64,000 bases of DNA, taken from IMG/VR virus record IMGVR_UViG_3300042691_046823. One strand, written 5' to 3'. Position 1 is the stretch's first letter. Every line of letters begins with the position of its first letter. The translations under genes were made by a program, and so were the position numbers. Shown here one piece after another: positions 32,085-61,218 of the stretch. This DNA comes from a virus. The notes beneath the pieces were generated by a model. The model was not told the origin of the DNA, ran no database searches, and saw nothing but the letters and a program-made list of their open reading frames with translations.

Positions 32085-32816
32085 ATGAGAGATTATCTTT
32101 TAGACTTAGTTGAACACACCTATGATCTTGGTTGCATAGACCTGATCAAAATCACTGGCACAGACAAAGAGACTGTGATCGATGGCCTGGCTGAAGATCG
32201 TTCGGTCGTGGTACAAGGCAAGTTTCTTAAACCTGTGCCTGAATTCATTGGCACATTTGGCATGCCAAATCTCAGCAAACTCAAGATCTTGCTAAACATC
32301 GCTGAGTATCGCGAAAACGCTGATATCTCTGTCACGAGACAAGAACGCAATGGAGAACAAGCACCAGTGGGTCTGCATTTCAAAAACACCGTGGGGGATT
32401 TCAAAAATGATTATAGATTCATGTCTTCTGAAATCGTCAGCGAGAAATTAAAGACAGCCAAATTCCGTGGCGCTACCTGGCACATCGAGTTTGAGCCCAC
32501 TGTGGCTGGCATCCAGCGATTGAAGATGCAAGCCCAGGCCAATGCCGAGGAAAACAATTTTCAGGCCAAGACTGATAAAGATACGCTGAAGTTTTTCTTT
32601 GGTGATCATTCTACCCATGCTGGAGAATTCGTGTTCCATACCGGTATCACTGGCGCATTGAAACGTGCCTGGTCCTGGCCAGTGAAACAAGTGATCTCTA
32701 TCTTGGATCTTACCGGAGACAAGATCGTGCGCATTTCAGATGATGGTGCCGCACAGATCACCGTGAACTCGGGCATCGCTGAATACAACTATATCTTGCC
32801 AGCACAAAGCAAGTGA
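32085..32816 (+). CDS. Probable DNA polymerase sliding clamp (gp45/PCNA-like)
   Basis: 243 aa alternating beta/alpha pattern, ends YNYILPA; close to the polymerase gene. Confidence 0.45.
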   Translation: MRDYLLDLVEHTYDLGCIDLIKITGTDKETVIDGLAEDRSVVVQGKFLKPVPEFIGTFGMPNLSKLKILLNIAEYRENADISVTRQERNGEQAPVGLHFKNTVGDFKNDYRFMSSEIVSEKLKTAKFRGATWHIEFEPTVAGIQRLKMQAQANAEENNFQAKTDKDTLKFFFGDHSTHAGEFVFHTGITGALKRAWSWPVKQVISILDLTGDKIVRISDDGAAQITVNSGIAEYNYILPAQSK

Positions 32817-34333
32817 TTGAACAAGACAACCTCACAGCCAAACAGCAGGACTATGCTATATTCCTGCCGGCTATATCCAGCTTCTATGCTTCATATGTGG
32901 GACGGCAAAGGACTACGCCATATGTAGAACAGAGCCGCATGCCTCCGGCCATGCCCGACATGGAATCAATGAACTGGTTGAATCCACAACAAGGCCTGTT
33001 TCCTTATCGCTGGAGTCTGTATTCAGCAGGGCATGCCAATCTCGATCTCAACAAACCCGATCCCAAAGAGGACATGGTTCGTAATAGAGATCCCAACACC
33101 ATTATGTTGGCTGACTCCGGCGGATTCCAGATCGCCAAGGGCGTGTGGCCGGGGCGTTGGGCCGATTTTACAGACAAGAAAGCCGAGGCCCAGAGGGAAA
33201 AGGTCCTCAAGTGGCAAATGGGCATAGCCACCTATGGAATGACCATGGACATACCTACATGGACCTTCCGAGATCCTGAAGCATCAAAACTCTGCGGTAT
33301 CTTCAGTTATGAAGACGCTGTCAACGCTACCCGGTACAACAACGAATACTGGATGGCCAATCGCTATGGCGAGACCAAGATCTTGAATGTGCTCCAGGGT
33401 GGTAACCATGCCGAGGCCGATCACTGGTATGATCTCATGAAAGATTATTGTGATCCAACCAAACACAAGAACCACTTCAATGGTTGGGGCATGGGCGGAC
33501 AGAACATGTGCGATGTGCATCTGGTACTTAAACGCTTGGTGCATCTCATACATGATGGATTGTTAGAAAAAGGCTGCCATGACTGGATGCACTTTCTTGG
33601 GACATCAAAACTGGAGTGGGCAGTGTTGCTCACCGACATACAGCGGGCTGTGCGCAAACATGCCAATCCTAACTTTACCATCAGTTTTGATTGCGCAAGC
33701 CCATTCTTAGCCACGGCCAATGGGCAATTGTATCACAGCATTTATACTGACAACAGAAGCAAATGGTCTTATCAGATGGCGCCCACAGCAGATGATAAAA
33801 AATATGCATTAGATAATCGTTCGTTCCGAGATGCAGTGTTAGCGGATGATATTCACAAATCCTTTGAAGATTCTCCAATTTCTCAAAGATTACGCATCAG
33901 AGATGTGTGCGTGTACAAACCAGGTGATGTAAACAAGATCGGCAAAGAAGGCCGCACGTCTTGGGATTCATTTTCTTATGCTTTGATGATGGGACACAAT
34001 GTGTGGATGCACATCGAAGCAGTGCAACGAGCCAATCGAATGTACGATCAAGGCATCTGTCCAGACATGATGGTACACCCAATCGATCCAGTTTATGATG
34101 CACGACGTGTGATCGATCGAGTTTTTGCCGCGCGAGATCGCTCAAAATCATTGGCCATAATCGATGAACATAGTAAAATATGGGAACGCATAGTTGGTAC
34201 TCGAGGATTTACTGGCAAAAGAGTTTGGAGCGCCACTCCTATGTTCAACTCTTTGTTTGATTTTGATCAACCCCAGATTGAAGAAGTAGATCTGGATCCT
34301 GCAAAACTTGAAGCGTTAGAGGACAGCGTGTGA
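32813..34333 (+). CDS. dpdA: TGT-fold 7-deazaguanine DNA transglycosylase (DpdA-like)
   Basis: DSGGFQ, MDIP, VLQG, HFLG, SFD motifs of the TGT/DpdA family; folE/queD/queE nearby. Confidence 0.75.
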   Translation: MIEQDNLTAKQQDYAIFLPAISSFYASYVGRQRTTPYVEQSRMPPAMPDMESMNWLNPQQGLFPYRWSLYSAGHANLDLNKPDPKEDMVRNRDPNTIMLADSGGFQIAKGVWPGRWADFTDKKAEAQREKVLKWQMGIATYGMTMDIPTWTFRDPEASKLCGIFSYEDAVNATRYNNEYWMANRYGETKILNVLQGGNHAEADHWYDLMKDYCDPTKHKNHFNGWGMGGQNMCDVHLVLKRLVHLIHDGLLEKGCHDWMHFLGTSKLEWAVLLTDIQRAVRKHANPNFTISFDCASPFLATANGQLYHSIYTDNRSKWSYQMAPTADDKKYALDNRSFRDAVLADDIHKSFEDSPISQRLRIRDVCVYKPGDVNKIGKEGRTSWDSFSYALMMGHNVWMHIEAVQRANRMYDQGICPDMMVHPIDPVYDARRVIDRVFAARDRSKSLAIIDEHSKIWERIVGTRGFTGKRVWSATPMFNSLFDFDQPQIEEVDLDPAKLEALEDSV

Positions 34334-34533: not shown

Positions 34534-35035
34534 ATCCGGACACGAATCAGCAGAGTTTTTCTTTGGTAACGAAGTAGAACACACTCCTGCACATGGCATG
34601 CCTACACTGTTTGTCATAGGTTATCAACAGCAGGCAGACATAGAGCAAACATTGAATCGTTGCCTTGGTGTCAAACACATCTTTTTCGGTGCCAATGACA
34701 GCTATCAGCCACGTACTCCTGCCGAATACACTGCCTGGGAAAACGTGATCCTGACTTTTCTGGATCGTGGCTACTGGTGCAGCCTGGATATTCCGTTCCG
34801 GCATGTGGAGGAATTTCACGAAGGCGGACTGTGTGAACGTGATCGATTCATACCTATCATCAAGGTGCCTATCCCTTACATAAAACTATGGAATTACAAC
34901 ACCTGTGTGAAAATCGACGACAAAGATTTTGCTGCCACCAACCCCGGTGTATGGGTGCATGAATTGCGAGATCTACAATCACGCGATAGATTTACTGACT
35001 GGAGCCAATACGAAAAGGACGATGTGATACAATGA
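34520..35035 (+). CDS. Hypothetical protein in the dpdA operon
   Basis: FFFGNEVEHTP..G..TLFV, HIFFGAN; start could be 34523 or 34526. Confidence 0.6.
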   Translation: MMMNRSGHESAEFFFGNEVEHTPAHGMPTLFVIGYQQQADIEQTLNRCLGVKHIFFGANDSYQPRTPAEYTAWENVILTFLDRGYWCSLDIPFRHVEEFHEGGLCERDRFIPIIKVPIPYIKLWNYNTCVKIDDKDFAATNPGVWVHELRDLQSRDRFTDWSQYEKDDVIQ

Positions 35036-35562
35036 GCGAACAACGACAACAAGCACAAAAAGAAACAGCCCAGCGCATCATGTCCGAAGCGCAACGCCAG
35101 ATCTGGGTCACGTTCCAGATGGAAGGCATCCATAAATATCCCGCTGCCTTGACAGATCCTGCTCTGGCCACTGGAGATCACTATGATGTTTCGTTCCTTG
35201 GTTATCCTCATCGTCATATCTTCCATTTCCGGGTGTGGATCGATGTGTTCCATAATGACCGGGACATCGAGTTCATCCAGTTCAAGCGGTGGCTCTTGTC
35301 ACTGTACACGCCATCCGGATCCTTGGGTACCGGCTTGTCAGATCGGTCCGTTTCCCATAATCAAGATCGAACTGGATTGGCACCGACCCATAGACTCGAA
35401 CTCGACTACAAATCCTGCGAGATGATCGCAGACGAACTATATACCTGTATCGCAGAACGCTACCCTGAACGTAGCGTCTGGATTGAAGTGGCCGAAGATG
35501 GTGAGAACGGCTGCCTCATAAAGTATGAAACTCACCGTCCCTATAACTCAGTCACTATCTAA
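35032..35562 (+). CDS. QueD-paralog T-fold protein, DpdL-like (candidate CDG decarboxylase)
   Basis: LGYPHRHIF fits LxxxHRHxF (motif recalled for DpdL, unverified here); IEF, SCEM, EDGENG. Confidence 0.6.
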   Translation: MSEQRQQAQKETAQRIMSEAQRQIWVTFQMEGIHKYPAALTDPALATGDHYDVSFLGYPHRHIFHFRVWIDVFHNDRDIEFIQFKRWLLSLYTPSGSLGTGLSDRSVSHNQDRTGLAPTHRLELDYKSCEMIADELYTCIAERYPERSVWIEVAEDGENGCLIKYETHRPYNSVTI

Positions 35563-38603: not shown

Positions 38604-39458
38604 TTGACAACATTTACATCAGAAGACCTGGAAAACTCTCTTACTGCTACCAGTAAAGATACATTTGACACACTTAAACAAAATCCGCTGGTAGCCGCGG
38701 CGCCTTACCAACCGGGTTATGAAGACGCCACAGCTTTAGATGCCATGAGTGGTGATGGCGGTTATCAAGAATCATACTTAGGTGATGCAATTCGCTTTAA
38801 AATGAAACGTGACAAAAAACGTTTTTGGGCTGGCGATAATATCAGCGACTATGTCAGCGAACAAGATAAAGAGAAACTAATCGACGAAGCCGCAGAAGCA
38901 TTTGAAACTGTGTTAGATCGATTGCTGATTGATCGTGAAAACGATCCTAACTCCAAGGGCACCGCACGACGCTTGGCCAAGATGTACTTCAACGAAATCA
39001 TGGGCGGTAGATACGATCCGGCACCAGATTGCACAGCCTTTCCAAACGACTCAGCAGACCGTTATGAAGGCATGCTCGTGGTGCGTAGTGAACTTCGTAG
39101 TATGTGCAGCCATCATCATCAACCCGTTGTTGGCGTTGCCTATATTGGCATCCTTGCGGCACAGAAATTGATCGGACTCAGCAAATACACACGCATCGCA
39201 CAATGGTGCGCCCGTCGTGGTACACTCCAAGAAGAACTCTGCAACGACATCGCCCGAGAGATCATGAAGGCCACTGATAGCAAGGATGTGGGCGTGTATA
39301 TCCAAGCCACGCATGGTTGCTGTGAGAATCGTGGCATCATGGCCCATTCCAGCCTTACCCAAACCACTGTGCTTCATGGTGCTTTCCGGTCAGATCCTGC
39401 GGTGAAAAAAGAGTTCACCGACAACATCAAATTACAGCAGGATTTTGCCCCCAGGTAA
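38604..39458 (+). CDS. folE: GTP cyclohydrolase I
   Basis: SMCSHH, IGLSK..R, QE, HGCCENRG; TTG start with SD GGAG. Confidence 0.95.
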   Translation: MTTFTSEDLENSLTATSKDTFDTLKQNPLVAAAPYQPGYEDATALDAMSGDGGYQESYLGDAIRFKMKRDKKRFWAGDNISDYVSEQDKEKLIDEAAEAFETVLDRLLIDRENDPNSKGTARRLAKMYFNEIMGGRYDPAPDCTAFPNDSADRYEGMLVVRSELRSMCSHHHQPVVGVAYIGILAAQKLIGLSKYTRIAQWCARRGTLQEELCNDIAREIMKATDSKDVGVYIQATHGCCENRGIMAHSSLTQTTVLHGAFRSDPAVKKEFTDNIKLQQDFAPR

Positions 39459-39535: not shown

Positions 39536-41902
39536 ATGCAAGCAAACCCAGTTCTGCGTCCCACAATCATAGCCGTGGCCGTGGGTCTCGTATTGACGGG
39601 CTGTGGAGGTGGAGGTGGAGGAGGCTCACCATCATATCAGCGTGCCAGCACAAACTACAATGTGCCATACCATACACCCACTCGAGTTGGCACAGTACAG
39701 CCGCTAAACACTACAAGCGCCAGATACGATAACACTGCATTGTTCAGTAACAACCTATCCGGCGGCACCCAACAAGAAGTGGTCATGGTGGGACGCATGT
39801 CTCCAGTGAATGGGCAGGCCTATCACGAATACGACGTGCAGATCTTTGGTTGGGACAATGGGTCTCTGACCAACAAGACCACTTCCTGGTTCTCTGGCAC
39901 AGATAATCGCATCCAAGGCAGCGAGAGCCAGGTCAAATTTGCAGATTTCAACGGTGATGGTCGCAATGACATGTTCATTGGCACATATACAGATACCGCA
40001 GTGTATGGTCCTATGTCTGTGTTCATCAATCAAGGTGGAAGATTTTCACGCACTGACATTGCCAATGTCAACAATATCGCTGTGGCCGACAGCGCCATCT
40101 ATGATATCAACGGAGATGGCCGATCAGACATCTTGGCTTTGAGCCATAGATCAGACACCATGATCCATTTTGGGCGTGGTGACGGTACATTCCAATCCTA
40201 CACCAATCAAAGCTGGGTAGGTGGCGGATCGGGAGTATCTGTGGGCGACTTCATGGGCACCGGCGGCAGTTCTATGATAATCACTGATACGCCAGCCGGC
40301 GGCAACCGACTGTACAGTTGGACCATACAAGCAGGCCTGGATAGATTGCTGATCAACGAGATCACTACCTTGCCCACACCACGTTTCTTGTTACCTAAAT
40401 GGAGCAGCCAGGGTTTCACCAGCAGTCATGATATCCGTGCCTTGGCCTTTGACTTTGATGCATCGGGCCGGACCTCGGCAGTGATCATCAGCAGGCCAGA
40501 AAAGAATGGTACCTATCCTGCGTTCAGCGAAGTGCAGTTCCTTAAAAACCACGGTGGCGGCGTGTTCACTGACGTGACCGATACTGTCTTGGTCAACTAT
40601 GACACATCAACTCCGGCCAGTTACAATCCTGTGTTGGCCGACGTGAACTCCGACGGACTCACAGATATCGTGCTCAGCAGTCCCAACTGGGACAGCAACG
40701 CAGGCAGCCAGGTGCTGATTCATACCAGTGAGCACAAGTATGTGGCCAGTTATGCCGCGGTGCTCAAGGCCTTCCAAGATCAAGCACAGGATCTCGAACG
40801 GGCAGTCAATGCTTCGGTGATCAACGGTGCCAATGGCGTGGTGTTTGTACAAGGACCTGATGGCGCCATGTACCTGGCCACGGCAGTGACCTATACCACA
40901 AATGGCGCACAACAAAAGGCTGTATATCTCAGCAAGTTAGGAGCAGTCACGCCCAATGCCCAGGCCACGGCGGCTTTGGTCAAGCAGACCTGGCCCTGGA
41001 TGAGCGATGCCCAGGTCAATGCTGTGCTCAGCACCAGTTCTACGTCTTGGTTTGGTATGAAACTGCTGGATCCCAGCAAGGCCTTGAGTCCTGTGGGCGC
41101 ATTGAGTATACCCGTGGCCGGTGGCCTGCGCCCGATCAATGGCAGCATCACCGGAGTCAACATCGCTGGATCGGCCAATGCGATCAAGGCCGTTGACAGC
41201 CTGGGCAGAGATTTCACAGTGAATTACAGTCCAACCAGTTATAACAGCAACAACCTGTGGAATCGTTATACAGACAACATGGACGATGATGACACCAGAT
41301 CTGCGCAGGTACTAAACATGACCAGCGCCAGATATCAAAAGTTCAAAGTCAGTTCATCCAGTGACAATAGCACCATGTTCATGGGAATCACTGACATGGA
41401 TGTTTATAAAGATACCCGACTTAATCTCCAGTTTGCTCGCATGCCATTCAATCCTTATGTGCAAATATCAGGCAGTTGGGGACGTGTACAGAGTTCGACC
41501 ACTATTGAGTCTACGATCACTCATAGGCAACAAGGATGGGTAGGCAAGGTTGGGGTCATGTATACCGCAACAGAGATAGAAAAAGGTCTGGTTTCACGTA
41601 TCAATCCTATCACGGCTGTATGGACCGAAGCAGGGCATGAGTGGTCTAACTTCAGAGTTTATGGTGGCACCTTGCCTAAAGTTATAGATGGATCAGTAGA
41701 TCTTACCCTGCCAACTTCAGTTGACATCCAAGGACAGATAAGGTACAGCCAAGTCCGAGCCGATCTTATAAGCCCCACAGTTGGTTATGCTCGCATGTCT
41801 TATCATCATGACATCACGCGACGTTCACGCATGCAAATCAATGCAATGACCACATCTCAAAATCAATACAACTTATCTGTAAACTACAAAGTTAGATGGT
41901 AG
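39536..41902 (+). CDS. Lipoprotein with FG-GAP/VCBS repeats and probable C-terminal beta-barrel (autotransporter-like)
   Basis: Lipobox LTGC plus poly-Gly; DFNGDGRND, DINGDGRSD, DVNSDGLTD; amphipathic strands ending YKVRW. Confidence 0.7.
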   Translation: MQANPVLRPTIIAVAVGLVLTGCGGGGGGGSPSYQRASTNYNVPYHTPTRVGTVQPLNTTSARYDNTALFSNNLSGGTQQEVVMVGRMSPVNGQAYHEYDVQIFGWDNGSLTNKTTSWFSGTDNRIQGSESQVKFADFNGDGRNDMFIGTYTDTAVYGPMSVFINQGGRFSRTDIANVNNIAVADSAIYDINGDGRSDILALSHRSDTMIHFGRGDGTFQSYTNQSWVGGGSGVSVGDFMGTGGSSMIITDTPAGGNRLYSWTIQAGLDRLLINEITTLPTPRFLLPKWSSQGFTSSHDIRALAFDFDASGRTSAVIISRPEKNGTYPAFSEVQFLKNHGGGVFTDVTDTVLVNYDTSTPASYNPVLADVNSDGLTDIVLSSPNWDSNAGSQVLIHTSEHKYVASYAAVLKAFQDQAQDLERAVNASVINGANGVVFVQGPDGAMYLATAVTYTTNGAQQKAVYLSKLGAVTPNAQATAALVKQTWPWMSDAQVNAVLSTSSTSWFGMKLLDPSKALSPVGALSIPVAGGLRPINGSITGVNIAGSANAIKAVDSLGRDFTVNYSPTSYNSNNLWNRYTDNMDDDDTRSAQVLNMTSARYQKFKVSSSSDNSTMFMGITDMDVYKDTRLNLQFARMPFNPYVQISGSWGRVQSSTTIESTITHRQQGWVGKVGVMYTATEIEKGLVSRINPITAVWTEAGHEWSNFRVYGGTLPKVIDGSVDLTLPTSVDIQGQIRYSQVRADLISPTVGYARMSYHHDITRRSRMQINAMTTSQNQYNLSVNYKVRW

Positions 41903-42294
41903 ATACCTTGATACAAGCCCAGGCCCAAGGCCGGGTGCCCTGGAAAGAACTGGTATTGGATCTGGGCATGGTCAAAGTCTATACTGATAAATTTCCAGTG
42001 ACCACAGGACACCGATTGTTTGTTCCTGCCCAGGACGACAATGACCATGTGGCGGAATGCTTCCGGCAGGCCTATAAATTAGGCAACTTTTTGGTCCAGC
42101 AGGGTGTATGCCAGGGATTCAACGTGGGCATGAATATGGGAAGCACAGCCGGACAGACAGTGATGTATCCGCACATACATCTCATACCCAGGAGAGATGG
42201 TGATGCACCAGATCCGGTGGGCGGGATACGGGCCGTGATACCCGGACAGGCCAACTATAAAAAACCAGATTATAAAAACCCAACAGATAAATAA
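41896..42294 (+). CDS. HIT-family nucleotide hydrolase
   Basis: AGQTVMYPHIHLIPR histidine-triad region. Confidence 0.9.
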   Translation: MVDTLIQAQAQGRVPWKELVLDLGMVKVYTDKFPVTTGHRLFVPAQDDNDHVAECFRQAYKLGNFLVQQGVCQGFNVGMNMGSTAGQTVMYPHIHLIPRRDGDAPDPVGGIRAVIPGQANYKKPDYKNPTDK

Positions 42295-42302
42295 CTTTTC
42301 AC

Positions 42303-42368
42303 AGCGGTCTTTTCGGCGTCATCCCGCTTTACAAACTCTGCCGCCTATGCTAAACTCTAACATAGGAG
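42303..42368 (+). promoter_or_regulatory. Candidate preQ1-I-like riboswitch (H-type pseudoknot plus SD-sequestering hairpin)
   Basis: AGCGG/CCGCT P1, CGGCG/TGCCG P2, TTACAAA linker, CCTATG/CATAGG covering AGGAG; directly upstream of queD. Confidence 0.5.
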
Positions 42369-42375
42369 ACATATC

Positions 42376-42879
42376 GTGGATCAAACACCAAAGACTTATC
42401 GCTGGACCAGTACCAAAGAATATCATGACGCTTTCCCCTGCGCTTATCGCCAATGGCGAGCCGACAGCCATTGCAATCTCATACATGGATACAGTTTCTC
42501 CATGAAGTTTTATTTTGGCACCGACGATCTGGACGTGCGCAACTGGGCTGCCGATTACGGTGGTCTCAAAGAACTCAAAAGCACGTTAGAAGATCAATTT
42601 GATCATACTTTATTGGTAGCTCAAGATGATCCCGAATTGGATACATTCAAACTTTTACAAGAAAAGAAAATGGCCAAACTGACCATCCTGCCACGATTAG
42701 GTTGCGAAGGCCTGGCGGACATGCTTTACAAATATGTCAATGGAGTTTACATTCCTGACATGTGGGGACCCAGCGAAGCCGATCGGCTGTGGTGCTATCG
42801 CGTGGAAGTAAGAGAAACACAATCAAACATGGCCTATCGCGAAGGTCACAGACATTGGAACGAGGATCTCTTTGCTTAA
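42376..42879 (+). CDS. queD: 6-carboxy-5,6,7,8-tetrahydropterin synthase
   Basis: HCNLIHGY, DYGGLK, FDH, E, VRET; GTG start. Confidence 0.9.
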   Translation: MDQTPKTYRWTSTKEYHDAFPCAYRQWRADSHCNLIHGYSFSMKFYFGTDDLDVRNWAADYGGLKELKSTLEDQFDHTLLVAQDDPELDTFKLLQEKKMAKLTILPRLGCEGLADMLYKYVNGVYIPDMWGPSEADRLWCYRVEVRETQSNMAYREGHRHWNEDLFA

Positions 42880-48928: not shown

Positions 48929-49446
48929 AAAAAGTCTATGTAAACTGGTCGGATGTCGAACGACAGACCCAAGAAATCATACGCCAGATGTACCTGGACG
49001 AGTTCCATCCCGATTATGTGGTTGGCATCACCCGTGGCGGATTGATTCCGGCAAATCTCATCAGCCAGTATCTCGAAGTGCCTATGCATGCGCTGAAAGT
49101 CAGCCTGAGAGACGATGAGCAATGCGAAACCAATGCTTGGATGGCCGAAGATGCATTTGTTGGCAAAAAAATATTGATCGTGGATGACATCAACGATTCC
49201 GGAGCCACCCTTAACTGGATACGCCAGGATTGGCAGGAATCTAATCTGCCTAATGACACTGCCTGGGCCCAGATCTGGGGAGGCAATGTGCGTGTAGCAG
49301 TGCTGTACGACAATCAAAGCAGCCACAATGAAATAGAAGTCACGTATTCTGCAGAGCAGGTAAACAAATTTGAGACACCGCAGTGGATAGTTTTCCCTTG
49401 GGAAGAGTGGTGGCGCAAATGGAATCCCGACGAACAACATATCTAA
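48925..49446 (+). CDS. Type I purine phosphoribosyltransferase (Gpt-like)
   Basis: GITRGGLIPA, LIVDDINDSGAT, WIVFPWE. Confidence 0.9.
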   Translation: MKKVYVNWSDVERQTQEIIRQMYLDEFHPDYVVGITRGGLIPANLISQYLEVPMHALKVSLRDDEQCETNAWMAEDAFVGKKILIVDDINDSGATLNWIRQDWQESNLPNDTAWAQIWGGNVRVAVLYDNQSSHNEIEVTYSAEQVNKFETPQWIVFPWEEWWRKWNPDEQHI

Positions 49447-49460
49447 AAAAGGAGATAACA

Positions 49461-50066
49461 ATGTTGGATAGGATCTTAAAAAACGTAGACTCGGCCCTGG
49501 CCGCGAAACTCATGGTCGCGCACGTGATCATTATAGCCATATCAAACTATATCGTACAGTTCAAATTTTCTGTGTTTGGTGCCCCTTTGGCAGCGGCAGC
49601 TTTTACTTTTCCCTTGGTAGTAGTGCTCACTGACCTAACCGTAAGATTGCTGGGCAAAGAAACTGGACGGGCGGTGATCTCGCTGGCCTTTGTTCCAGCC
49701 ATCGTCGCATCTGTCTTGGTAGTAGGGTTGACTGGTGCTCCTTGGTCTACTGCATTCCGCATTGGCCTTGGCTCGGGCTGTGCATATCTCATCAGCAATC
49801 TCCTGGATGTGTATGTGTTTCAGTATTTCCGTGAACGCTATCAGACCTGGTGGATCGCTCCTACGCTGAGTGCAGTAGTCAGTACCTTTATCGACACCTA
49901 TGTGTTCTTCTTCACTGCGTTTTACCGAGGAGCCAACGAGTTCATGGCTGCCAATTGGCACGTTGTGGCTACCAACAATTCTATCAGCAAGATCATCGTC
50001 AGCCTCCTGGTGATTTTACCAGCCTATGGTGTGCTACTAAATTACCTACAACGCAGGATCAAGTAG
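49461..50066 (+). CDS. yhhQ: Queuosine-precursor transporter (YhhQ/VUT family)
   Basis: SNYIVQ, FTFP...LTDLTVR, RIGLGS..AY, LDVYVF, DT..FF..AF; multi-TM; SD AAGGAG. Confidence 0.85.
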   Translation: MLDRILKNVDSALAAKLMVAHVIIIAISNYIVQFKFSVFGAPLAAAAFTFPLVVVLTDLTVRLLGKETGRAVISLAFVPAIVASVLVVGLTGAPWSTAFRIGLGSGCAYLISNLLDVYVFQYFRERYQTWWIAPTLSAVVSTFIDTYVFFFTAFYRGANEFMAANWHVVATNNSISKIIVSLLVILPAYGVLLNYLQRRIK

Positions 50067-50868: not shown

Positions 50869-51759
50869 ATGGAAAAAATCACATACACAGAAATATTCTA
50901 CAGTTTACAGGGTGAAGGACGCTGGGCCGGTGTACCATCGGTGTTCTTCCGCACTTACGGTTGCAACTTCCGTTGTAAAAAGTTTGGCAGGACCGATGAC
51001 TTCGAAGGACACAATCCCGAAGTAGTGGAGATAATACAACAGATCGATGCTGATCCTGGAAAATTTACCAAGTTCGAAGATCTGCCTCTGGTGACATCAG
51101 GTTGTGACACTTATGCGTCGATCTACCCAGAGTTCAAGAAGTTCAATCATCAGCATGATGTGCCTGATATCGTGGATCAGATGCATGCCATGATACCTCA
51201 TGGTCGCTGGGATCAAGACTGCGGTGCCGACACTGTGCATCTGGTTATCACTGGCGGCGAGCCACTGTTAGGTTATCAAAAGCGATATCCCGAACTGATA
51301 GAATCCTGCAGAGCCAAGGGCCTGCGCGATCTCACTTTTGAAACAAATGGCAGCCAGTGGTTATACGATGACGTCAGAGAGTATCTGTTTGAAGAATTTA
51401 CCCGACACGGTCGTGACTATGATCGATTGACCTTTAGTGTCAGTCCCAAACTGCCATGCTCAGGAGAGTCGTGGGAATCTGCTATCAATCCTACCATAGT
51501 CAAGAGTTATGAGATGATCGGACATACCTATCTCAAGTTTGTAGTGGCCACGCGAAAAGATGTGGAAGATGCCGAGCGTGCTGTTGAAGAATTCCGGCAT
51601 GCCGGCTTTGGTGGACCAGTGTATCTCATGCCCATGGGCGGAGTTCCTCAGGTGTACAATCTCAACACTCAGGAAGTGGCTCGCTTGGCCATGGAACGCG
51701 GCTGGCGTTACAGCCCCAGACTGCAGGTAGATATCTGGCGCAATGCCTGGGGCACCTGA
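50869..51759 (+). CDS. queE: 7-carboxy-7-deazaguanine synthase (radical SAM)
   Basis: EIFYSLQGEG, FRTYGCNFRC...CDT, ITGGEP, ETNG, VSPK, RLQV. Confidence 0.9.
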   Translation: MEKITYTEIFYSLQGEGRWAGVPSVFFRTYGCNFRCKKFGRTDDFEGHNPEVVEIIQQIDADPGKFTKFEDLPLVTSGCDTYASIYPEFKKFNHQHDVPDIVDQMHAMIPHGRWDQDCGADTVHLVITGGEPLLGYQKRYPELIESCRAKGLRDLTFETNGSQWLYDDVREYLFEEFTRHGRDYDRLTFSVSPKLPCSGESWESAINPTIVKSYEMIGHTYLKFVVATRKDVEDAERAVEEFRHAGFGGPVYLMPMGGVPQVYNLNTQEVARLAMERGWRYSPRLQVDIWRNAWGT

Positions 51760-61142: not shown

Positions 61143-61218
61143 GGGCCTGTAGCTTAAACAGTGAAGCAAGCGACTCATAATCGCTAGAGTGCGGGTGCAA
61201 GTCCTGCCGGGCCCACCA
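61143..61218 (+). tRNA. tRNA with CAU anticodon, most likely tRNA-Ile2 (lysidine type)
   Basis: Acceptor GGGCCTG/CGGGCCC-A-CCA; anticodon arm AGCGA-CTCATAA-TCGCT like proteobacterial Ile2. Confidence 0.9.

Follow-up and report, generated by a model that had tools for sequence, protein, structure and literature searches.

Genes and features at the queD locus

The virus record IMGVR_UViG_3300042691_046823 was analysed as a single stretch of 64,000 nucleotides (nt), referred to below as the window, and the element under study is a pseudoknotted RNA leader on its + strand, directly ahead of a queD-like gene. This gene, the regulated one, occupies 42376-42879 on the + strand, begins with a GTG codon at 42376 and encodes a QueD-like T-fold protein of 167 amino acids (aa), which matches PF01242 at 1.5e-15 and phrog_2389 at 3.4e-36. 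Upstream, also on the + strand, lies an open reading frame (ORF) of the HIT family (PF01230; 41896-42294), and its TAA stop codon (42292-94) is overlapped by a promoter-like, T4-late-like TAAATA box at 42288-42293 (+ strand), 10 nt before the first strand of the pseudoknot. On the 3' side of the pseudoknot, the Shine-Dalgarno (SD) sequence AGGAG (42364-42368, + strand) has its AGG inside a hairpin, CCUAUG/CAUAGG, which spans 42344-42366 on the same strand (CCTATG at 42344-49 and CATAGG at 42361-66 in the DNA) and is the putative OFF-state helix sequestering the ribosome-binding site (RBS). An earlier reading of this DNA (the original prediction) had proposed a preQ1-I-like riboswitch here, and the elements it named, namely TAAATA, the two strands of helix P1, CGGCG at 42314-18, TGCCG at 42339-43, CGCC, the hairpin, the SD, T42308 and C42323, all lie where it had placed them.

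The putative aptamer is an H-type pseudoknot of 43 nt (42303-42345), all of it on the + strand. Its helix P1 pairs AGCGG (42303-42307) with CCGCU (42324-42328), and its helix P2 pairs GGCG (42315-42318) with CGCC (42342-42345). Three loops connect these strands: L1, UCUUUUC (42308-42314), in which a variable first base is followed by an invariant CU and a variable spacer; L2, UCAUC (42319-42323), whose invariant last base, C42323, stands where preQ1-I has its specificity cytosine; and L3, 13 nt long (42329-42341), which consists of the A-rich UUACAAAC followed by a near-invariant UCUGC. P2 has 4 base pairs (bp) in the window and 5 bp in another subclass (GRCNN), so that the general form of its 5' strand is GRCN(N) and that of its 3' strand is (N)NGYC.

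Conservation and covariation of the pseudoknot

A search of IMG/VR with the QueD-like protein returned more than 591 relatives, of which 80 loci at 86-92% identity were retained, and the leaders of these loci share one motif. With the addition of 120 loci retrieved by pattern, the collection amounts to 127 distinct aptamers and 161 distinct leaders. In a structure-blind MAFFT alignment of 45 distinct aptamers, 99.6% of the P1 cells pair, and three of the five P1 pairs change on both sides (C-G to U-A or A-U, G-C to C-G, and A-U to U-A); the covariation score was reached by none of 500 shuffles. The covarying forms of P1 are AGCGG/CCGCU, UGCGG/CCGCA, AGAGG/CCUCU, AGUGG/CCACU, ACCGG/CCGGU and AUCGG/CCGAU. 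P2 was parsed by a sequence-only rule and compared with 10000 shuffles, none of which reached its pairing level. Its position 2 is G-C 26 times, A-U 11 times and G-U 6 times; position 4 is A-U 17, G-C 8, G-U 8 and U-A 4 times; and position 5, found in the 5-bp subclass, is U-A 16 times and C-G 5 times. Taken together, P1 and P2 pair in 97.5% of cells in a MAFFT-only alignment of 20 leaders of the 5-bp class.

The covariance model R1 was built on P2 only and was used to align 54 distinct leaders; because P1 is absent from R1, the P1 counts are unbiased by model fit. On this alignment, P1 and P2 pair in 96.2% of cells, none of 500 shuffles being as high, and 7 of the 10 pairs change on both sides (62 cells). 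The H-type, preQ1-I-like pseudoknot of the original prediction, with its 5-bp P1, is thus borne out by covariation in both helices among phage queD leaders, and the A-rich L3 is likewise seen. Its choice of P2 register has to be revised. The register it preferred, CGGCG with UGCCG, is feasible in the window sequence, but when the registers are slid by 1-3 columns pairing falls to 29-57% of cells; the register that covaries is the one it had listed as an alternative, GGCG (42315-18) with CGCC (42342-45). G-U pairs are frequent in P2 and in the helices of the expression platform described below, and the element therefore fits an RNA transcribed from the + strand. Folding of the single window sequence was also tried as a test: the nested-only minimum free energy (MFE) fold is no better than those of shuffles (z = -0.7), which is uninformative because nested folding is blind to a pseudoknot. 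In general, we regard the pseudoknot structure itself as near certain.

The unpaired bases are conserved in a different manner, as about 20 unpaired positions are near-invariant across the leaders while the helices vary freely. L1 ranges from 4 to 9 nt in the relatives; its first base is U in 46, C in 41 and A in 24 cases, so that the U after the P1 5' strand, which had been singled out as a feature, is not conserved, and the CU that follows it is invariant. L2 reads UCAUC in 24 of 44 leaders from the QueD-similarity loci, and every variant ends in C, as anticipated for the cytosine before the P1 3' strand; the base before this cytosine is mostly U and sometimes C or A. The consensus of L3 is wUAhAAAy followed by UCUGC, with UAcAAAyUCUGC as the conserved form. 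The conserved CU of L1, UCAUC of L2 and UAcAAAyUCUGC of L3 would be typical of a binding pocket. A pairing of UCUGC with the P1 5' strand, suggested by eye, was rejected because it would be broken by the P1 variants AGAGG and ACCGG, across which UCUGC does not change. A conserved and covarying structure with conserved unpaired bases, located in a 5' leader, is what riboswitches in general display.

Expression platform and predicted direction of switching

In every leader, the P2 3' strand is common to a second helix that covers the RBS, and at least four platform designs (types a, b1, b2, c and other) are found on the one aptamer. In type a, which includes the window, the SD hairpin takes two C of the P2 3' strand in 84 of 84 distinct leaders. 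All six pairs of this hairpin are retained in 82-84 of the 84, and pair 6 covaries (GC 71, AU 6, GU 5). The mean folding free energy of the type a hairpin goes from -5.2 to -0.1 kcal/mol once the two C-G pairs are removed; for the window hairpin the corresponding values are -4.8 and 0 kcal/mol. The claim that a hairpin lies over the SD and is invaded by P2 therefore holds in the window, where the two C at 42344-45 belong to both helices.

The remaining leaders arrange the same strand differently. Across the 68 distinct leaders of types b2, c and other, the P2 3' strand forms a 6-8 bp helix with the start codon, in which the last 3-4 bases of P2 and the next 3-4 bases take part (for example, UGUCAUC with GAUGGCA). 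Six positions of this helix are paired in 67-68 of the 68 leaders, and it covaries at the -1 position (C-G 49, U-A 18) and at the first base of codon 2 (U-G 49, C-G 15, U-A 4). In type b1, represented by few leaders, AUGUCU pairs with AGACAU beside the SD. An aptamer strand that also belongs to a mutually exclusive platform helix, in several designs, is again a general mark of riboswitches.

The effect on the RBS was estimated by partition-function modelling, in which the unpaired probability was compared per type between a free and a taken P2 3' strand. For type b2 (n=49), the start codon goes from 0.01 to 0.30 and the SD core from 0.36 to 0.64; for type c (n=17), the start codon goes from 0.00 to 0.45 and the SD core from 0.81 to 0.87. 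Once P2 has taken the strand, the modelled start-codon accessibility across b2, c and other is thus 0.30-0.45, up from 0.00-0.01. For type a (n=86), the SD core goes from 0.29 to 0.72 and the start codon from 0.72 to 0.24. Over the whole RBS the modelled effect is modest (0.44 to 0.55), and the class-specific measures are clearer. Since several unrelated platform designs implement the same competition, there is strong evidence for a two-state switch in which folding of the pseudoknot would turn translation ON, and the same direction is expected in vivo. The original prediction had supposed feedback, that is, OFF control; the conserved architecture speaks for the opposite, as pseudoknot folding would free the RBS.

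Distribution, copy number and promoter-like box

The R1 model matches the window exactly once (47.3 bits, E = 1.5e-8) and finds one match per locus elsewhere. The element is single-copy in each of five large contigs, two of which, of 382 kb and 353 kb, have an estimated completeness of 100% and 98%, respectively. At one locus, the RNA model has a weak second match (L052:2215-2263; 15.7 bits, E = 0.47), some 640 nt upstream of the real copy. The P1 5' strand, L1, the P2 5' strand, L2 and the P1 3' strand are retained in it, L3 and the P2 3' strand are missing, and it could represent a duplicate that has decayed.

Among the exact pattern matches in IMG/VR, 119 of 120 are real and 114 of 120 stand immediately upstream of queD. 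At least two further pattern matches have one extra gene between the motif and queD: at L150:5084-6750 the operon behind the motif runs from a cupin-like ORF through queD and a KdsA-like ORF to a glycosyltransferase, and at L161:4432-6507 it runs from a 243-aa ORF with a weak tRNA-methyltransferase PHROG match through queD to queE. The pattern matches accounted for by neither queD nor these arrangements are at contig ends. Within the first 80 loci, one (L049) has a methyltransferase-like ORF inserted ahead of queD.

A TAAATA, TAAGTA or TATAAT box is present, mostly 11-17 nt 5' of P1, in 144 of 158 distinct upstream regions, some of which also have TTGACA or TTGACC about 17 nt farther 5'. We infer that this box acts as a promoter, and its position would therefore put the element at the extreme 5' end of the mRNA; this agrees with the original prediction, in which the queD mRNA opens with the leader, after a promoter-like box. 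Two promoter styles are seen ahead of the same RNA in relatives (for example, L234, L287 and several IMG/VR loci), one T4-late-like (TAAATA or TAAGTA) and the other sigma-70-like (TTGACA-N17-TATAAT), sometimes with an extended -10, as in TGTATAAT; the switch may therefore be expressed at differing stages of infection in different phages.

Searches of cultured phages with blastn and tblastn found QueD-like proteins of at most 53% identity and no match to the leader, and the queD of Acidovorax phage ACP17 has no leader at all. In the set of species-representative genomes, two of the pattern matches listed are real, and both are on short contigs of metagenome-assembled genomes with a phage-type queD; judged on the matches listed, the motif appears to be absent from bacteria. 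Rfam 15 at gathering thresholds gave no match to the pseudoknot leader in the window or in 20 diverse loci. At the relaxed threshold of E<=10, the preQ1-I model (RF00522) returned nothing on the 251-nt window leader or on the leader of a second locus, L036. The best related match was that of preQ1-II on the L036 leader, which at 13.4 bits against a gathering score of 47 (E = 8.1) is at chance level, and the models of preQ1-III, SAM-II/V, SAM/SAH and guanidine-III matched neither the window and the 20 loci nor the two leaders. Membership in preQ1-I, -II or -III, for which the original prediction had pointed to model searches, is accordingly not found. In a full-text literature search, likewise, neither a motif of queD leaders nor a 7-deazaguanine riboswitch of phages turned up. 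The element is thus uncatalogued; it is also abundant, with hundreds of contigs from uncultured jumbo phages carrying it, and appears to be specific to these phages.

The QueD-like protein and neighbouring genes

The QueD-like protein scores below the NCBIfam QueD equivalog cut-off (33.7 vs 89 bits) and reads IHGY in place of the IHGH of the solved 6-carboxytetrahydropterin (CPH4) synthase 7v0f, so that one canonical metal-binding His appears to be replaced; the true product of this divergent enzyme is not certain. The QueD of several relatives (L013, L022, L026, L033, L035, L041, L068 and L069) is extended in frame at its N-terminus by about 20-35 residues (for example, MATINVDVGDMSPQEA...), and at these loci about 60-100 nt separate the motif from the conserved QueD core; the window protein is without this extension. 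The stop of the queD-like gene overlaps the start of a glycosyltransferase gene at 42872 (overlap 42872-79), and through this overlap the switch may also affect the downstream glycosyltransferase operon.

The window is phage-like, with almost every gene on the same strand, and its family-B DNA polymerase has its nearest relatives in the jumbo phages Phosso, Atu_ph07 and CBB (41-49% identity). Three genes of the pathway were confirmed in the window: FolE (38604-39458), a QueE-like radical SAM enzyme (50869-51759) and a YhhQ-type preQ0/preQ1 transporter (49383-50066). The window also encodes a purine phosphoribosyltransferase-like protein. Between folE and the HIT and queD-like genes lies an FG-GAP-repeat protein of 788 aa (39536-41902) with a lipoprotein-like N-terminus. 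A 506-aa ORF (32813-34333) has no Pfam, PHROG or NCBIfam match, and the label dpdA was not confirmed for it and is not relied on; nor was a DpdL-like label confirmed for the ORF at 35032-35562, which has no Pfam or NCBIfam match and matches only phrog_17812, of unknown function. A tRNA gene (61143-61215; RF00005, 61 bits) is the sole Rfam match in the window.

The original prediction had noted that QueC was not seen. This stands within the window, and does not extend to a complete relative, which has a divergent QueC-like gene. In this 382-kb genome (G001), the ORF at L330:1438-2091 encodes 217 aa with an SGGADS PP-loop and a C-terminal CGTCWWCEER; it resembles a divergent QueC, its PF06508 score being only 17 bits, and tblastn found no counterpart of it in the 64-kb window. 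The phage group as a whole may therefore not be 'QueC-less'.

Proposed mechanism and alternative explanations

Based on the results presented above, we favour, with moderate confidence, the view that the leader is a cis-acting, ligand-responsive ON switch for the queD-like mRNA. The pseudoknot and its covariation, its position, its association with a single gene and the mutually exclusive helices are direct observations. Without effector, the P2 3' strand would pair downstream, and its two C would close the CCUAUG/CAUAGG hairpin, burying the AGG of the SD. Once the effector is loaded, P2 would be locked, the hairpin would lose almost all of its stability, the RBS would open and the QueD-like protein would be translated. 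In this scheme, the effector would be read by the invariant C42323 at the junction of P1 and P2.

That the leader binds a ligand, and of which chemical class, we infer. The invariant C at the preQ1-I specificity position, together with the gene context, points to a guanine-faced heterocycle, and a small molecule whose Watson-Crick face resembles that of guanine is the most likely effector. FolE, the QueE-like enzyme and the YhhQ-type transporter supply a pathway context that counts in favour of the proposed switch. Candidate effectors are a 7-deazapurine of the pathway (preQ0, 7-carboxy-7-deazaguanine (CDG), 7-deazaguanine or preQ1), guanine, or the pterin substrate or product of QueD. Activation by a substrate, in a feed-forward manner, would suit an ON switch better than product feedback. 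More speculatively, the leader could serve counter-regulation, with preQ1 shutting the host que genes while the phage turns its own gene on.

Several observations weigh against the ligand-responsive ON switch. It is not obvious what feedback logic would be served by switching a biosynthetic gene ON. The QueD-like enzyme is divergent, and because it scores under the curated QueD cut-off, the gene name gives a weaker pathway clue to the ligand. The modelling of type a is mixed, as the SD core opens and the accessibility of the start codon falls; this is the sole inconsistent result. A second register, CGGC with GCCG, is also possible in the window (-6.5 kcal/mol). Finally, none of the known preQ1 riboswitch classes is ON: the strategies of that family are SD occlusion, SD sequestration and transcriptional control, and none of them is activating (PMC11625349).

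A narrower form of the ON-switch proposal, which we put forward tentatively as a possibility short of an even chance, is that the leader belongs to a new riboswitch class, confined to phages, whose ligand is some metabolite other than preQ1 and whose effect on translation is activation instead of repression. CDG, preQ0, 7-deazaguanine, guanine freed by DNA transglycosylation and the pterin substrate of QueD would then be possible ligands.

The best surviving alternative to a ligand-responsive switch, although we hold it to be unlikely, is a ligand-independent or protein-dependent translational operator, similar to the leader pseudoknot of T4 gene 32 or to an RNA thermometer. The pseudoknot and the RBS helix would then be real and no metabolite would be involved, the equilibrium being set by an RNA-binding protein of phage or host, by temperature, by Mg2+ or by the kinetics of co-transcriptional folding. 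The structural data are silent on what stabilises the pseudoknot, T4-like phages use translational operators, the leader follows a late-type TAAATA box, and ON logic is easily explained as developmental timing. On the other hand, an operator of this kind would not account well for about 20 near-invariant unpaired positions beside freely varying helices, nor for a fold that mirrors a known small-molecule aptamer down to its specificity cytosine. In addition, genomes of 350-380 kb contain one copy of the element, which accompanies a single metabolic gene, whereas several targets would be expected of a regulator protein.

Far less probable is the feedback model, in which the leader would be a genuine preQ1-I riboswitch, albeit a divergent one, with preQ1 as its ligand and repression of queD as the outcome. 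Such a riboswitch would share with our element the 5-bp P1, the cytosine before the P1 3' strand, usually after U as in type I (PMC11625349), the A-rich L3 and the queuosine-pathway gene downstream. However, the Rfam preQ1 model is silent on the two leaders at E<=10 and on the window and 20 loci at gathering, L1 is without the conserved U or UU, L3 carries five extra invariant bases, and P2 is a GC-rich covarying helix. Moreover, the P2 3' strand is the anti-RBS strand and not the SD, and folding would open the RBS. The adjoining promoter-like box and the unremarkable single-sequence MFE z-score might lend themselves to a reading as chance or as an element acting at the level of DNA, such as an operator or promoter feature. 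The covariation effectively refutes this reading, since compensatory changes keep two interleaved helices with G-U tolerated, L1 varies from 4 to 9 nt, and there is a third helix, likewise covarying, that extends to the SD or the start codon.

Should the ligand-responsive ON switch prove right and a metabolite of the pathway be bound, the preQ1-I fold would gain a new ligand or a new logic, the leader would reveal how phages control the timing or rate at which they make the 7-deazaguanine DNA bases that defeat host restriction, and a compact ON-switch part would be available for synthetic biology. To our knowledge, riboswitches owned by phages, and not situated on genes borrowed from the host, are very rare, and we know of none that controls DNA hypermodification. 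If the leader does form an activating class with a ligand other than preQ1, then no earlier riboswitch would have been dedicated to a DNA-hypermodification pathway of phages, and the preQ1-I fold would have a relative of ON type. With 43 nt, a clean two-state design and a short list of ligands, the element is directly testable in vitro.

Comparison with known RNAs

The T4 gene 32 pseudoknot nucleates binding of the gene's own product, a single-stranded DNA-binding protein, and represses translation. Like the leader described here, it is a pseudoknot at the 5' end of the mRNA of a T4-like phage and governs translation; the two differ in that the product of our gene is a metabolic enzyme and in that our pseudoknot competes with an RBS helix. 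In its switching logic, the leader resembles the add adenine riboswitch of Vibrio vulnificus, a translational ON switch in which the regulated enzyme removes the ligand. In both RNAs a strand of the aptamer belongs to a helix that hides the SD or the start codon, and folding, stabilised by ligand in the adenine riboswitch and, as proposed, in ours, frees the RBS. Their folds are unrelated, the adenine riboswitch being a three-way junction and the phage leader a pseudoknot. The other pseudoknot riboswitches compared, preQ1-II among them, share with the phage leader their size, pseudoknot topology and translational control; none of them is matched in Rfam, and their conserved loop sequences differ.

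The closest likeness is to preQ1-I (RF00522, types I-III; for example, B. subtilis queC, T. tengcongensis and E. coli). Both are H-type pseudoknots with a 5-bp P1, and in both P2 forms between the P1 loop and the 3' tail; in the phage motif, 96-99% of cells pair, and both helices show compensatory changes. A cytosine stands directly 5' of the P1 3' strand in both, C42323 being invariant here; in preQ1-I this cytosine pairs with the ligand and follows a U in type I and an A in types II and III (PMC11625349). The A-rich start of L3, which in preQ1-I follows P1 and lies in its minor groove (PMC11625349), is also common to the two, as is the location in the leader of a gene of the 7-deazaguanine pathway. 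The L1 of the phage motif is 4-9 nt long and begins with N-C-U instead of the conserved U or UU, the UU after the P1 5' strand being found in preQ1-I types I and III (PMC11625349). Its L3 has 13 nt, in which the A-rich start is followed by UCUGC, five near-invariant extra bases without a counterpart in preQ1-I, and its P2, with 4-5 pairs, is a canonical helix that covaries. The P2 3' strand does not contain the RBS but is complementary to it, and the predicted direction is therefore ON and not OFF. The phage motif is also matched by no Rfam model and is found solely in uncultured jumbo phages. The element would be best classed as a preQ1-I-like pseudoknot aptamer with a distinct pocket region and an inverted logic.

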